A stretch of DNA of 64,000 nucleotides, from NCBI GenBank assembly GCA_021613535.1, contig CP075492.1:14183769-14247768 (forward strand), in the 5' to 3' direction. How positions within the stretch are numbered: the stretch's first letter is position 1; every line of letters starts with the position of its first letter. Origin of the DNA: Adineta vaga. Taxonomy: Eukaryota; Animalia; Rotifera. The notes under the pieces are model-generated. The model had not been told where the DNA came from. It ran no database searches and was given only the letters and a program-made list of their open reading frames with translations. Position numbers and translations under genes: made by a program. Below are positions 6,275 to 17,834 of this stretch, in pieces.

Positions 6275-7024
6275 ATGTTATCATATCTGTTATTCATTAC
6301 TATCACATTTTTCACTTTGAATACTACTCAAAGTGATAGCATCAATTATAATCAGGGTAAATCTAGTTATCTGAATAATGGTCAATTACATTTAATTAGT
6401 GGAGCTGTTACCGCTCAATCTAAACAAGATGTACTCTATTCACTTTTACTTGTTCAATTGGCTGCGAATGCAAAAGCACCTCGAACATCTATTTCTGCAT
6501 GGTATGAAAACTATGAACGTACTTTACCTAATATTGCTTGGGTGCTGACATCGTCTGCAAAATTGACTCCATTTATTCCATCTACTGATCGTATTTCTCT
6601 CAAATCTGTCATAACAACATCGCTAGCCGGTCGAATCACTCCCGAACTACAAGATATATTAAGTCGTAGTTTTGTGGAAATTCAACAAATGAAAGCTACT
6701 GATCCAGCTATCGTAGAATTTACGAAGGATGTAGGTGATGGAAAAACTTTTAATTTTCAAGTGCAATTCATTGATGAAAGAAATACTGATGTATCAGCTC
6801 TTCAATTTTATGTTACATTGACAACTTCGGCAAGTATTGGAGATGATATATTCTTATTACATCAATTTGACAAAAATGCAGTTACAATTCAAGTAGCCTA
6901 CGAAAGTATTACTTTGAATAGTGATCTATATGCTACTATTCGTCAAAGTGTTATTAACAAACTAGGACCTGATCGAATTAATCAATTCATTTCGAAGATA
7001 TTTGATGATGGATCTAAAATCTGA
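6275..7024 (+). CDS. Hypothetical secreted protein (N-terminal signal peptide), function unknown
   Basis: 249-aa uninterrupted ORF with a hydrophobic N-terminus 'MLSYLLFITITFFTL'. No recognisable domain. Confidence 0.4.
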   Translation: MLSYLLFITITFFTLNTTQSDSINYNQGKSSYLNNGQLHLISGAVTAQSKQDVLYSLLLVQLAANAKAPRTSISAWYENYERTLPNIAWVLTSSAKLTPFIPSTDRISLKSVITTSLAGRITPELQDILSRSFVEIQQMKATDPAIVEFTKDVGDGKTFNFQVQFIDERNTDVSALQFYVTLTTSASIGDDIFLLHQFDKNAVTIQVAYESITLNSDLYATIRQSVINKLGPDRINQFISKIFDDGSKI

Positions 7025-7099: not shown

Positions 7100-7942
7100 T
7101 TAAGATGTTTCTCTAATAAATCGAGGAATTAATTCAGCAGCTACGTCATTACCAGGTTCTGTTAATGATAGGTGATGAACACCACGTTCCACAATCAAGA
7201 ATTTCCATAATTTAGGTAATTTCAATGTCCATACTTTTGCTTCTTCAATTGGAAAGATGCGATCTTCTTCTCCATGAAGAGCTAATATTGGCATAGTAAG
7301 TTTTTCTAGTTCATCATCAATCGCATCACGATCTAGAAGACATGTCATTGCTGGATCATAACCTTCAGCACCAGCATATCGTTCAATCCACATTTCTTTG
7401 ATCTTTTCAAATACTTTCTCATTGAGACGTACAGGTCCACCAAAAGATGCTGCTCTTGTCAAAATTGCTTCATCACTTGGAATCTTCGTTTCACACCATT
7501 TATCCCGAGCTTTTAGCATCATGATTTTGATTTGTTCTGCAGTTGAATAGACTGAAGTTCCCAATAATATCAGTCCTTTCACTCGATGAGGTTCAAGTAG
7601 AGCCATTCGAAGTGCAATGAAACCACCTTGAGTCGTTCCCATGGCATAAAATTGATCGATACCAAGTTTAGTAAGAAGTTCTAACGAATCTGAAGCAGTG
7701 TCCCAAAAAGTAAATTTCTCATTACGACCTTTAGTTTGTCCATGACCATGTGCATCAATGGAAATGAGATTGTAGTTAGAATATCGAATGTCTTTCATTT
7801 GTTGATCATAGAATCGTGAATCCATGAGAAAGGCATGATGCATAACAATGGTTGTTAATGGTTTGTCAATTGGATGAGAAAGACGATAAGCAATGGTAAC
7901 ACTATCATCCAATGTCATATAAAGTAGTTCTTTATGAAACAT
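7100..7942 (-). CDS. Alpha/beta-hydrolase fold protein (AB hydrolase-1 type), single exon; the nucleophile elbow reads G-T-T-Q-G-G
   Basis: 280-aa ORF with an 'HHAFLMDS' oxyanion region, elbow motif 'AMGTTQGGF', and C-terminal 'GEEDRIFP...GVHHLS' (acid/His). Confidence 0.7.
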   Translation of the reverse strand: MFHKELLYMTLDDSVTIAYRLSHPIDKPLTTIVMHHAFLMDSRFYDQQMKDIRYSNYNLISIDAHGHGQTKGRNEKFTFWDTASDSLELLTKLGIDQFYAMGTTQGGFIALRMALLEPHRVKGLILLGTSVYSTAEQIKIMMLKARDKWCETKIPSDEAILTRAASFGGPVRLNEKVFEKIKEMWIERYAGAEGYDPAMTCLLDRDAIDDELEKLTMPILALHGEEDRIFPIEEAKVWTLKLPKLWKFLIVERGVHHLSLTEPGNDVAAELIPRFIRETS

Positions 7943-11875: not shown

Positions 11876-13400
11876 ATGACTCAAAGAAGAATTCTTTTTT
11901 TATTTATCTTTATTCTTATCAAACAATCAATTTTACAAGATATGAATTCATTTCGAATGTCTCTTTTGTATAATTCTCAATTTCAATGTAGTAATACAAC
12001 TTGTTTTCCATTTCATACGAAAATTGTATCAAAAATTCGTATGTGTCAAATTGAATGTTTACAGCAGAAACAATGTAAAGCAGCGAGTTTTGATCGAACA
12101 ACTTTTCATTGTCAATTGTTTGCTAATTTATTCAATGAAAATAGTACGATGTTAAATGACAACAACATTGATAGTATGTTTCTTATATCTCAAACAAGAT
12201 CTCCACCTGGTATGTATTAATATGTTTAAAAAATGATCTTTGAATATACATTAGACAAAAGAGTGCATAAGATTTCGATTCGGACAATTGTTTTGAAATG
12301 TATATAAAAACTAATTCGATATATTAAAAATAATCAGCGCGAGATTATTATAACCATTCTTAGTTTGTTACCATCTCATAGACTTTAACTCATTTCTTTC
12401 TTTGTTATCTTATACGCAGCAACTATTTTAAAGTATTGTTTATGTAAACTATTATTTTCCTCTGTGTTCTATGTACGCAAGTTTTATTTTCTAGTTATAA
12501 AATCTTTTCATCTTTTTTCCCTAAAATTTTTCATAGGAGAAAAGGAAACTTTGATATAAACAGAACGAACAGTTCATATATGACCAATAACGATATAACT
12601 ATTGATAAGAATCATTCTATGAAAATGAAAAGTGTAATCGAGTTTGTAATTTATTGTAATAAATATTGTACCATATAGCTTACATAAAAGCAATACTGTA
12701 TGACACAATTATACATGGATAGAAGTTCGATTCTAAGATAAAAATCAACATTTTTTCTTGAAATAGACCAGAAGAATAATTCAGAATATTTTTATTTTAA
12801 AGATCTATTGGATTAGAAGTGTTATACATTTTAAATTACTTATCTACGATTCAAAACTGAAGTTGTATCTTTAGTTTACTACAAAATATATTAATTAAAT
12901 TGTTTTTAAGTCAATATGCAGTAGATGTGTAAATGATTTAAACTTAGTATATTTCTTCGATTTTCTTATAAAAAGCGTGTCTAATTATCATATCTCTTTT
13001 AGCTCCATCACTATCGAGTATTTGTGTGTGGAATACACTCGATGCATCTCTTTATAATAACCAGTTTATCTATTCACCAACATCACAAATCTATGCCGCT
13101 GGTATGTTAAATAATCAATTTGGTATCTATAAAGCATATGGATACGGAAATGTTACTACACAAACAATATGGAAAGCACCTCAAAGTTCAACGGCAAATG
13201 AGTGTTATTTTTCGCTTCAAGTTGATCGTAATTTAGTTGTTTATACAGTAGTATCAAAAAGTGTAATGTGGACAGCTGCTGTTTACAATAGCGGTGAAGG
13301 AAAGCCATTCTGCTTGCAAATGTTCGATTCTGGAAATCTAGTATTGATTGATAATACTACTACTATTTTTTGGCAAACAAATACTGCAACAATTGGATAG
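11876..13400 (+). CDS. PAN/apple-like + bulb-type (B-) mannose-binding-type lectin, copy B; join(11876..12209,13003..13400) with a 793-nt intron
   Basis: Exon 1 has a signal peptide plus a 6-Cys PAN-like domain (CSNTTC...CQIEC...CKAASFD...CQLF). Donor CCTG|GTATGT at 12210 is phase 1. Acceptor TCTTTTAG| at 13002. Exon 2 has the B-lectin motif 'QVDRNLVVY' and 'CLQMFDSGNLVL'. The splice gives G+CT=Ala, matching copy A. Confidence 0.6.
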
Positions 13401-14413: not shown

Positions 14414-15424
14414 ATGTCATCCGATATTGGAATATTACGTACACCTGATTCATCATTTCTCAATCTATTAGATTATTCTTTTCAACCGAATTATATTGAA
14501 TTATCTAATCCGGGTTCGATTGGTAATGGTAAAACAAAATTACGTTTACATTATTTAGATGAAGGAAATAAAAATAGTCCGGAAACAATACTATTATTAC
14601 ATGGTGAACCCAGTTGGAGTTATTTATATCGTCATTTTATACCATCATTGAAACAATATCGAGTTATTGCAGTTGATTTGATCGGATTTGGAAAATCGGA
14701 TAAACCAGTGAATAAAACTGATTATACATATCAAAGACACGTTAACTGGATACGAGAATTTATTGAAAAACTGAATTTAAACAACATAACATTATTTTGT
14801 CAGGTAAAATGTTCTATAGAGAAAGAAATGTGGTAATTGAAAATATTTAATATGTAGGATTGGGGTTCTTTGATTGGTCTACAATTAGTTGGTACACAGG
14901 AAATAGGTGATCGTTTTGCACGAGTAGCTGTTGCTAATGGTGGATTACCTACGGGTGATGGAAAGATTTCTAAAGGTTTTACTCAATGGCTTAATTTTGC
15001 ATCACAACAAACAGAAATGGATGTTGGTAATGTTATTAAACTTGGAGTTGTCCGAGATATGAAAGAGGAAGAAATGGATGCATATAATGCTCCTTTTCCA
15101 AATGAAAAATATCAAGCTGGTGCTTTAGTATTTCCATTATTAGTACCAATCACTCCTGACAATCCATCGTCGGAATATAATCGTCAAGCTTGGCAAAATT
15201 TGAAGAATTTCAATCGACCATTTCTTACTCTTTTTTCTGATTCTGATCCGATTACAGCAGGTCTTGATAAAATCTTACAATCCATGGTGCCAGGTGCTAG
15301 AAATCAAGCACATACAACGATTACTCAAGGTGGACATTTCTTACAAGAAGATAAACCATATGAAATCGTTGAAAATCTAATTAAATTCATTAAAGCTAAT
15401 CCTTTGATATCTGCACGATTATAG
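14414..15424 (+). CDS. Haloalkane dehalogenase, HLD-I / DhlA-type (alpha/beta hydrolase); join(14414..14803,14858..15424), 318 aa
   Basis: Aligns along its length with Xanthobacter DhlA. 'LHGEPSWSYLYR' matches DhlA 'LHGEPTWSYLYR'. Nucleophile elbow 'FCQDWGS' matches 'VVQDWGG'. Second halide-binding Trp is in 'FTQWLNF'. 'AYNAPFPNEKYQAG' matches 'AYAAPFPDTSYQAG'. Catalytic His is in 'GGHFLQED'. A 54-nt intron (GTAAAAT...TGTAG, phase 0) sits between Q and D of the nucleophile elbow. Confidence 0.85.
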
Positions 15425-15723
15425 TTCTAAAAATACTTTAATAAATACAAAACATATTTTCTATGTTTTAATTGACTCTACATCTTATGTAACTAACAGG
15501 ACAGGTTATCATCACAAGTAAGTTTTATTTATCACGACAAATATTGTCCTTGATCTTATAATAGAAGGAAAGTTGTTACGTGATATCATTCCTTTTTTGA
15601 AAGGTATTTGCTCTCCATAAAAAGAAAAAGAACAGGTGAAATTTGTTCTCTTATGTAACACAGCCACAATATCAGTATATATACTCATAGATTTTAAAGA
15701 GAAGACATATTCTTGAAACAAAA

Positions 15724-17834
15724 ATGAGCAGCCAAATTTCACCAACGGATATCGAAAATGGTTCAGTATTGACACAATCCACGGGTAGCAATGATGGACA
15801 TAGTCATGGTTCTGTCATAAGTTTTCATTCGATTAATTATACTCTTCCTCTGCCAAAATTTTGTAATTGTATTCCAATACCATGTTTAAAGAAAAAGCAA
15901 CAACAAATTCTGTTTGATATATCAGGTGTTTTTAAACCTGGTATGAATGCTATCCTTGGACCAACAGGAAGTGGTAAATCTTCATTATTGGATATCCTTG
16001 CTGATAGAAAAGATCGTGAAGGTCTCGAAGGTCAAGTACTCATGGATGGACAAGTGCAAACAGTAGATTTTAAATATCGTGTTGGTTATGTTGTTCAAGA
16101 TGATATTATTAGTGGAAATTTAACTGTTAGAGAAAATTTACTTTTCTCAGCTAATACTCGATTATCTGGAAAAGTTTCATCAAGAGATAAACTAACAATA
16201 GTTAATGAAGTTATCGAACAATTAGGTTTAGAAAAATGTGCTGATAGAAAGGTTGGCACTGAATTAAAGCGAGGAATTTCAGGTGGTGAACGAAGACGAA
16301 CGAATATTGGTATGGAATTAGTTCTGTCTCCTCGAGTACTTTTCTTAGACGAACCAACTACAGGTAAATCATATAATATAAATGAAATATTATTCAATCA
16401 TAATTTATGTGTACAGGATTGGATTCATCAACAGCTCGAAATGTAATGAAATACTTGCATCAGTTGTCGAGAAAAGGCCGTATGTTTTTCTATTATATAC
16501 TAATTTTAGTATGATCTACTTTTTAATGAGATGTAGGTACTATCATCTTTTCAATTCATCAACCACGTTATTCAATTTTTAAATTATTTGATACTCTTTT
16601 TCTCGTCGCTGCTGGCCGTTGTATTTATCAGGGACCAAGTAAAGTTGTTCTTTCGTATTTCGAATCCATTGGATTTCAATGTGAAGAACATAATAATCCT
16701 GCGGATTTTCTTCTGGATGTTTCTCAAGGTGATTACCTTCCCACATCTCCATCATTCAATGTTCTTGATGAAAACGATTCAGATCAACAACAAGATCAAG
16801 TTGTCAATTACCTCCATGGTGCTTACGAAAAATCAACATTGTTTACTATGATTAAACAAGAGGTAACTGATTTAAGTTCTTCGTTAAATCGTATAAGTCC
16901 AACAATGCATGAAACAACTAAATTACCAAAAAAATCTCGTTTATCCGAAACATTCTATGTTGCACAGCGAACACTTCGAAATGCTTTTCGTAATCCAGCA
17001 TTGATCGGTATGCAAACTGGTGTATCGATCTTTTTAGGTATACTTATCGGTTTGATTTACATTCGAATGGATCATTCGATAGATACAGGTGTAAAGAATC
17101 GTCTTGGTGCAATCTTTTTCATTGTTACAAATCAAGTATTTGGTAGTCTTTCAGCACTTGATCTTTTCATTAAAGAACGTCCTTTATTTCAACATGAAAA
17201 TGTCAGTGGTTATTATCATGTTTCAACCTATTTCATCGCAAAAATTCTCTGTGATATCATTCCATTACGAACTATTCCATCGATTTTGTTCTCATCGATT
17301 GCATATTTTATGATTGGATTTCAACGAACAGCAGCAAAATTCTTTATTTTCTTCTTTGGAATCTACATTACATCACTTTGTGCTTCATCATTTTGTTTTT
17401 TTGTATCGGCAAGTGTACGAGTCTACGGTAAGAAAATACTTTTATTAAAATTCACGCTCATTCGTTTATTTATCATTGTTGTAGCTATTGCAAATTTACT
17501 CGCTGCAATGTATTGTGTTTTAACATTGATATTCAGTGGATTCCTTGTAGAAGTTACATCCGTTACAGCCTTTCTTTCATGGATTAAATGGATAAGTATT
17601 TTTCGATATTCAAATAATTTATTTGCTATTAATGAATTTACAAATTTGAAACTTTGTTTACCAAATGATACAAATACATGTGAAATCGATGGATTAGAAA
17701 TCTTAAAACAACAAAATATTGATGCATCATCCGATTGGGATCTATGGAAGAATTTTGTTGCATTAGGTGGTATTATGTTATGTTTTCTTACACTAGCTTA
17801 TATTCAACTATTTCGAATGAAAAAAACCAAATAA
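15724..17834 (+). CDS. ABC transporter G-family half-transporter (ABCG2/White-like); join(15724..16363,16417..16479,16537..17427,17485..17834), about 647 aa
   Basis: Walker A 'GPTGSGKSS', signature 'ISGGERRR', Walker B 'LFLDEPTTGLDS' (split by a 53-nt intron), 'GRTIIFSIHQPR' (split by a 57-nt intron), and a C-terminal 6-TM domain '...LIFSGFLV...' (57-nt intron). All four splice phases were checked by hand. Confidence 0.8.

Follow-up and report, generated by a model that had tools for sequence, protein, structure and literature searches.

A gene of the bdelloid rotifer Adineta vaga, I4U23_015407, encodes a haloalkane dehalogenase of subfamily HLD-I, and very probably descends from an ancient transfer from a bacterium to a bdelloid ancestor, followed by domestication in the animal genome. 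Here, we describe this gene as it stands in a 64,000-nucleotide (nt) window of contig CP075492.1 (assembly GCA_021613535.1, positions 14,183,769 to 14,247,768, forward strand), where it occupies positions 14414 to 15424 of the plus strand and is split by one short spliceosomal intron. All coordinates below are positions in the window, and a caret marks an exon-intron or exon-exon junction. The parts of the gene are as follows.

14414..14803, plus strand: haloalkane dehalogenase exon 1 (I4U23_015407), 390 nt, residues 1-130, with ATG at 14414, CAG (Q130) as last codon, and phase 0
14606-14608, plus strand: oxyanion-hole residue Glu65 in HGEPSW (exon 1), invariant in alignments
14804..14857, plus strand: spliceosomal intron, 54 nt, phase 0, GTAAAA...TGTAG, 22% GC, at a CAG^G proto-splice site in the nucleophile elbow (Q^D)
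14858..15424, plus strand: exon 2, residues 131-318 and stop, beginning GAT TGG GGT TCT (D131 W132 G S), with TAG at 15422-15424
14858-14860, plus strand: nucleophile Asp131 (exon 2)
14861-14863, plus strand: halide-binding Trp132 (exon 2)
14987-14989, plus strand: halide-binding Trp174 (exon 2)
15245-15247, plus strand: catalytic acid Asp260 (exon 2)
15335-15337, plus strand: catalytic base His290 (exon 2)
15413..15421, plus strand: C-terminal tripeptide Ala-Arg-Leu, closing a tail of about 5 residues specific to the rotifers, fitting the consensus [SAC][KRH][LM] of the type 1 peroxisomal targeting signal (PTS1)
15440..15445, plus strand: AATAAA, a candidate polyadenylation signal by sequence match only, 16 nt past the stop codon

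Read without splicing, the locus falls into two frames: the ATG frame from 14414 closes at the stop at 14834-14836, and a second frame spans from the stop at 14855-14857 to 15424 (begun at TTG 14870 in the list of open reading frames [ORFs]). Joining 14803 (…TGT CAG) to 14858 (GAT TGG GGT…) gives a 318-residue protein that matches GenBank UJR11224.1 (hypothetical protein I4U23_015407, Adineta vaga) at every residue, and the public A. vaga annotation has the same exon-intron structure. The intron (GTAAAATG…ATATGTAG) holds two in-frame stops (TAA 14834-14836 and TAG 14855-14857), so read-through would truncate the dehalogenase. It is similar in size to the introns of the adjoining ABCG transporter gene (53 and 57 nt), and the median intron of A. 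vaga is 58 bp long (Nowell et al. 2018, PMC5916493). A first-pass annotation, made from the letters alone, had placed the gene at 14414-15424 and its intron at 14804-14857; these coordinates were all correct, and the motifs it quoted (QDWGS, FTQW, GGHFLQED, LHGEPSWSYLYR, and APFPNEKYQAG) were all found in the spliced product. A search for a second dehalogenase copy in the 64-kb window found none.

The protein was assigned to its family by profile, structure, and active-site residues. Top phmmer matches among Protein Data Bank (PDB) sequences were all haloalkane dehalogenases, with E values of 1e-112 for DpcA-like 6f9o, 7e-100 for DmrA 4mj3, and 3.5e-97 for DccA 5esr, and far weaker ones for DppA, DpaA, and DhlA (1e-47 to 1e-54; DhlA 1edb, 2.7e-47). 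NCBIfam model NF002043 (PRK00870, haloalkane dehalogenase) was matched with 414.8 bits (cut-off, 265), over model positions 3-301 of 302, and the HLD-II and HLD-III type models NF002938 and NF002873 scored under their cut-offs. Pfam PF00561 was matched with an E value of 7.9e-22, on an alpha/beta-hydrolase core with a helical cap domain. An AlphaFold model (39-sequence alignment; mean predicted local distance difference test score [pLDDT], 92.9) was compared with known structures using Foldseek, which aligned it to DpcA with a TM-score of 0.93 and a root mean square deviation (rmsd) of 0.9 Å; each of the 50 best PDB matches listed was a haloalkane dehalogenase or an engineered version of one.

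Subfamily HLD-I is marked by a Trp-Trp halide pair and an Asp acid after strand beta-7; the acid of HLD-II is a Glu after beta-6, and the halide pair of HLD-II and HLD-III is Asn-Trp. In alignments of 39 and 124 sequences, E65, D131, W132, W174, D260, and H290 were invariant. W132 and W174 align with W125 and W175 of DhlA, and D131, H290, and D260 with its D124, H289, and D260 (the DhlA reference used is an exact match to 1edb); an 11-sequence alignment had misplaced DhlA D260 by one, opposite S259, and the larger alignments put it on the invariant D260. The conserved Trp-Trp pair and Asp acid thus make up the HLD-I signature, and I4U23_015407 is a haloalkane dehalogenase of this subfamily, in the PRK00870 or DpcA-DmrA-DccA group, with an enzyme activity expected by analogy. 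The pentad proposed in the first-pass annotation (Asp-His-Asp plus Trp-Trp, HLD-I) is intact by the phmmer matches, by NF002043, and by the invariant residues.

The closest characterized relatives are three bacterial HLD-I enzymes of PRK00870 type, namely, DpcA (Psychrobacter cryohalolentis K5, 6f9o), DmrA (Mycobacterium rhodesiae JS60, 4mj3), and DccA (Caulobacter crescentus, 5esr). The rotifer protein is collinear with them over its full length (50 to 56% identity in structural alignments), and its model superposes on them with TM-scores of 0.90 to 0.93 and rmsd values of 0.9 to 1.2 Å. All four have the pentad, a short cap-domain loop, the acid motif SDSDP, and the base motif GHFLQED. The rotifer gene differs from the three bacterial ones in having an intron, AT-rich codons, and a candidate polyadenylation signal, and its protein has a 4- to 5-residue insertion at 33-36/41, a 2-residue insertion at 145-146, a deletion of 2 residues after residue 81, and a tail of about 5 residues that ends in ARL. 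Its elbow reads DWGS where theirs reads DWGG; Ser after the elbow Gly was found in the rotifer clade and in 5 of 117 bacterial sequences. Eighteen residues are fixed in the rotifer clade as diagnostic, each of them present in less than 3% of bacterial homologs.

Resemblance to DhlA (Xanthobacter autotrophicus GJ10, 1edb/2had), the archetype of HLD-I, is looser. The five pentad positions correspond (D124/W125/W175/D260/H289 in DhlA; D131/W132/W174/D260/H290 in the rotifer protein), at a BLASTP identity of 37% and a Foldseek TM-score of 0.85 (34% identity). The cap-domain repeat of DhlA and its small Phe-lined cavity (F128, F164, and F172) are associated with adaptation to 1,2-dichloroethane. 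The 10-residue repeat segment, which includes Phe164, is missing from the rotifer protein; F128 is replaced by Leu, F164 has no counterpart, and F172 alone is kept. Because the repeat segment is missing and Phe128 is Leu, the protein belongs on the DpcA/DmrA/DccA branch of HLD-I, not near DhlA. The label "DhlA-type" in the first-pass annotation therefore holds at the level of the subfamily and fails in the narrow sense (37% identity to DhlA against about 56% to DpcA-like proteins, cap repeat absent, Phe128 to Leu). With the 1,2-dichloroethane features of DhlA missing, good activity on that substrate is not expected, and the DhlA-like substrates foreseen for the enzyme now look a weak prediction; by analogy, its substrate range would lie nearer those of DpcA, DmrA, and DccA than that of DhlA.

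The mechanism of haloalkane dehalogenases is known from DhlA crystallography, and the invariant residues allow it to be projected onto the rotifer enzyme. The carboxylate of Asp131 would attack the halogen-bearing carbon in an SN2 reaction, with the indole NH groups of Trp132 and Trp174 binding the leaving halide. The alkyl-enzyme ester would then be hydrolyzed by a water molecule that His290 activates, Asp260 orienting His290, while the backbone amides of Glu65 and Trp132 would stabilize the oxyanion; the products would be an alcohol, a halide ion, and a proton. A likely role would be the detoxification or use of natural or man-made haloalkanes.

The protein is predicted by family likeness to act on haloalkanes, and no natural substrates are known for enzymes of the PRK00870-type group, even in bacteria. 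The rotifer enzyme may have kept the fold and catalytic machinery of a haloalkane dehalogenase while its physiological reaction became another one, on a different class of electrophile or as a general ester or epoxide hydrolase, in which case "haloalkane detoxification" would be the wrong role. The 18 fixed residues, two insertions, one deletion, and DWGS elbow of the rotifer clade would fit such a change, and dehalogenase relatives have changed role before, for example, in the coelenterazine luciferases (PMC12059646). We nonetheless consider a changed reaction unlikely. All six mechanistic residues are invariant, both halide-binding Trp residues included, and the model superposes on DpcA at 0.9 Å. 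The ratios of nonsynonymous to synonymous substitution rates (dN/dS) among the rotifer sequences, 0.07 to 0.25 over all 21 pairs, show that the ancestral design has been conserved. In a luciferase or esterase derivative, no need for a halide site would be expected.

Origin was examined with the best 120 database matches as the homolog set. Seven of these are bdelloid or rotifer-like (73 to 88% identity), and the other 113 lie at 52 to 57% identity. About a quarter of the 113 carry a source name, and all the named ones are bacterial (Psychrobacter, Paraglaciecola, Halopseudomonas, Leptospira, Parvibaculum, and Acidobacteria; several of them come from contigs the size of a genome); the remainder are unnamed metagenome proteins. 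In a neighbor-joining tree of 124 sequences, rooted on DhlA with 200 bootstraps, the rotifer sequences were monophyletic in 200 of 200 replicates, Adineta in 199, and Rotaria plus an environmental contig in 193. The rotifer clade branches from within the bacterial sequences, several nodes deep, and its stem branch is long (0.25). The gene thus groups with bacterial HLD-I, not with eukaryotic epoxide hydrolases, which was the check by phylogeny that the first-pass annotation had proposed. The pattern of the tree fits one transfer before these bdelloid lineages split and vertical descent since. Orthologs were found in three Adineta and three Rotaria species.

Other animals do have dehalogenase-like genes, and patchy animal gene families are sometimes explained by loss, so the gene might instead be an old eukaryotic one, inherited vertically and lost in most other animals. 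We regard this as very improbable. In a 2025 survey, all the metazoan dehalogenase-like sequences covered (sea urchin, brittle-star DafA/AfLuc, and Renilla luciferase) fall in HLD-II, and no HLD-I was reported (PMC12059646). Those genes resemble the rotifer gene in putting a dehalogenase fold into an animal genome, attributed to bacterial transfer; the rotifer gene differs from them in its Trp-Trp pair and Asp acid and in grouping with bacterial HLD-I. Since the metazoan sequences of that survey are all HLD-II, the rotifer gene is a separate acquisition. No eukaryote outside the rotifers occurs among the named entries of the best 120 matches, and the gene has one intron where A. vaga genes average 4.1 (PMC5916493). 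Vertical descent was rejected on the HLD-I subfamily, the nesting among bacteria, the lack of other eukaryotes among the named entries of the best 120 matches, and the single intron.

The intron was then compared across bdelloids, using the orthologous loci of five further species and the annotated protein of each to place its intron. All five have a single phase-0 GT-AG intron at the identical Q^D site (…TG(T/C) CAG ^ GTAA…(T/A)AG ^ GA(T/C) TGG GG…), with the following lengths.

A. ricciae ortholog: intron of 49 nt
A. steineri ortholog: intron of 62 nt
R. sordida ortholog: intron of 148 nt
R. magnacalcarata ortholog: intron of 697 nt (locus L008, 6394-7090)
Rotaria sp. Silwood1 ortholog: intron of 1561 nt (locus L003, 6391-7951)

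None of the five lengths is divisible by 3, so removal is required in each species. The CAG^G proto-splice site is supplied by the conserved Gln-Asp codons of the elbow, and the GT-AG intron that the first-pass annotation drew between Q130 and D131 recurs at the same site in all five other genomes. The intron is much longer in two of the Rotaria species (697 and 1561 nt) than in Adineta (49 to 62 nt), which fits the longer introns reported for Rotaria (PMC5916493).

An environmental contig (L011; JGI/IMG sample 3300050370, Ga0506604_063792; 1074 nt, 33% GC) contains an uninterrupted rotifer-type dehalogenase coding sequence (CDS). It is 82% identical in nucleotides to the spliced A. vaga CDS, the exon junction is contiguous (…ttttgtcag^gattggggt…), the flanks beyond the CDS are merely 31 and 92 nt long, and the protein groups with Rotaria in the neighbor-joining tree. 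On the simplest reading, this contig is probably the spliced mRNA of another bdelloid, from a metatranscriptome. A scan of metagenomes for further rotifer contigs returned none, the yield being two bacterial-like loci at 47 to 51% identity.

Domestication of the gene would have run as follows. Taken up once from a bacterium before the split of Adineta and Rotaria, it would have drifted in codon usage toward the extreme AT bias of the host (its GC content at third codon positions [GC3] is now 0.16), and it would have gained one U2-type intron at the CAG^G proto-splice site that the conserved elbow codons for Gln and Asp create. A eukaryotic polyadenylation signal would be part of the same process, as would the gain of a short C-terminal tail, which in Adineta ends in a tripeptide like those that target peroxisomes. 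The pre-mRNA would be spliced at 14803^14858 to give the 318-residue enzyme, and the gene has been kept under purifying selection since.

Rotifer tails are 3 to 6 residues longer than the bacterial median. PTS1-like ends occur in four of the seven rotifer sequences (ARL in A. vaga and A. steineri, SRL in A. ricciae, and SKL in R. magnacalcarata), and the consensus is fitted by none of the 113 bacterial homologs. We take these ends as a hint, not a finding, that the enzyme may be directed to peroxisomes in Adineta.

Copies of this gene can decay. A second copy in A. steineri (L009 7082-8108, CAJNOG010000116.1) retains the same intron, at 61 nt, and has a TGG-to-TAG stop at the W111 position, and its DWG codons have lost 1 nt; the public 294-residue model of it (P0007) leaves out the damaged region. 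By its sequence, this copy is a pseudogene, a decaying duplicate. That the A. vaga copy is likewise decaying or unexpressed is nevertheless highly unlikely, given its intact frame, canonical splice sites, full set of catalytic residues, and dN/dS of 0.09 to 0.22 against six orthologs, and pseudogene status was rejected on the frame, the residues, and the dN/dS.

To bacterial contamination or an assembly chimera we give practically no credence: the nearest named relatives outside the rotifers are all bacterial, yet the gene has a spliceosomal intron with in-frame stops, a GC3 that matches a 31% GC host, a 20-Mb chromosome as its setting, where ABCG, receptor, and lectin genes with introns lie on either side, same-intron orthologs in independent assemblies of five other species, and an upstream lectin gene in common with A. 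ricciae, and on this host intron, composition, linkage, and set of orthologs the explanation was rejected.

Bdelloid precedent for such a gene is ample. Between 12 and 15% of bdelloid genes are transfer candidates, and of those backed by phylogenetic (clan) support, about 80% were shared by all four species examined (Nowell et al. 2018, PMC5916493). Foreign genes of this sort account for roughly 8 to 14% of the gene set in bdelloids (PMC3499245, PMC5916493). Haloalkane dehalogenase (EC 3.8.1.5) was listed as a foreign, expressed activity in A. ricciae, represented by transcript contig 57916 (horizontal gene transfer [HGT] index, 48.5), which maps to a genomic contig also carrying metazoan genes (Boschetti et al. 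2012, PMC3499245). That paper was the only one found in a literature search for haloalkane dehalogenase with rotifer, Adineta, or bdelloid. The A. vaga gene shares with horizontally acquired bdelloid genes (PMC3499245, PMC5916493) its nonmetazoan nearest relatives, metazoan linkage, acquired intron, presence in several genera, and enzyme-coding content, with no difference in kind; it is an ordinary, already reported kind of bdelloid foreign gene.

Five points weigh against parts of this account. Splicing of the A. vaga transcript at 14803^14858 is deduced from annotation, comparative data, and a contig of another species. The environmental contig could, alternatively, be an intronless allele. 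Three rotifer sequences lack the PTS1-like end: that of R. sordida closes with PQE, the environmental one with SSE, and that of Rotaria sp. Silwood1 with SKR. The donor lineage is not fixed by a neighbor-joining tree with a long stem (0.25) and a sample of the best 120 matches. Nor is it certain that contig 57916 of A. ricciae is the ortholog of the A. vaga gene. Taken as a whole, the evidence is still best explained, with high probability, by an ancient transfer of an HLD-I gene from a bacterium to bdelloids and its subsequent domestication. Horizontal acquisition and domestication, as opposed to contamination, was also the view of the first-pass annotation, and it is borne out by the host-like AT-rich DNA, the intron-bearing metazoan neighbors, and the 20-Mb chromosome.

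The assignment to HLD-I, the conserved position of the elbow intron, and the PTS1-like tail were not found described in the literature searched. We tentatively suggest, as a possibility that goes beyond the transfer itself, that bdelloids hold the only known animal HLD-I, acquired apart from the HLD-II genes that are the source of the luciferases, and that in Adineta the enzyme has been redirected to peroxisomes by a newly evolved ARL or SRL end. If so, one bacterial enzyme would have gained both an intron, at an existing CAG^G site within an active-site motif, and an organelle address. The case is clean and well supported: a gene for a bacterial enzyme has become what is probably a functioning gene of an animal, with one ancient transfer, codon usage that has shifted completely, an intron between active-site Gln and Asp codons, purifying selection in more than one genus, and a duplicate copy that has decayed. 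Dehalogenase enzymology gains from it a source of subfamily-I enzymes in an animal, unreported in the 2025 survey (PMC12059646). The picture of bdelloid genomes is unchanged, since foreign enzyme genes, haloalkane dehalogenase included, have been reported from them since 2012.

The dehalogenase gene lies on a 20,354,754-bp A. vaga contig among intron-bearing ABCG, receptor, and lectin genes, and the GC content of the window is 27 to 36% throughout (host, 31%). Its neighbors include the following.

15724-17834, plus strand: ABCG half-transporter gene (ABC_tran, then ABC2_membrane), 300 nt downstream of the dehalogenase gene
16364-16416 (53 nt) and 16480-16536 (57 nt), plus strand: introns of the ABCG gene
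13026-13400, plus strand: bulb-lectin-like ORF upstream of the dehalogenase gene (Pfam B_lectin, below the curated cut-off)
7100-7942, minus strand: intronless alpha/beta hydrolase gene, 280 residues, about 6.5 kb upstream of the dehalogenase gene, encoding the same protein sequence (100% identity) as A. vaga I4U23_015402 of that contig

The intron-containing ABCG neighbor in AT-rich DNA, also noted in the first-pass annotation, is real; the pairing of this efflux-type transporter with a putative detoxifying enzyme does not recur at the loci of A. ricciae and A. steineri. Genes for rhodopsin-type (7tm_1) receptors follow downstream of the ABCG gene. Upstream of the A. ricciae ortholog, at L001 1377-1724, the lectin-like ORF recurs with 58% identity; it is the sole conserved neighbor found, and its presence at both loci supports their orthology. 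Near the R. sordida gene lies a weak counterpart of another window ORF, at 11876-12220, which has a PAN domain. Farther upstream, an ORF at 6275-7024 (plus strand, 249 residues) has a hydrophobic, signal-peptide-like N terminus and no Pfam or NCBIfam match.

The alpha/beta hydrolase I4U23_015402 has homologs across Adineta, Rotaria, and Didymodactylos. Its nearest named matches outside the rotifers are from Taphrinomycotina fungi, at 49% for Taphrina and 47% for Protomyces, while actinobacteria come next with about 30 to 36%, and it is probably a second foreign gene, judging from these matches. A paralog, I4U23_015479, is 85% identical and lies on the same chromosome.

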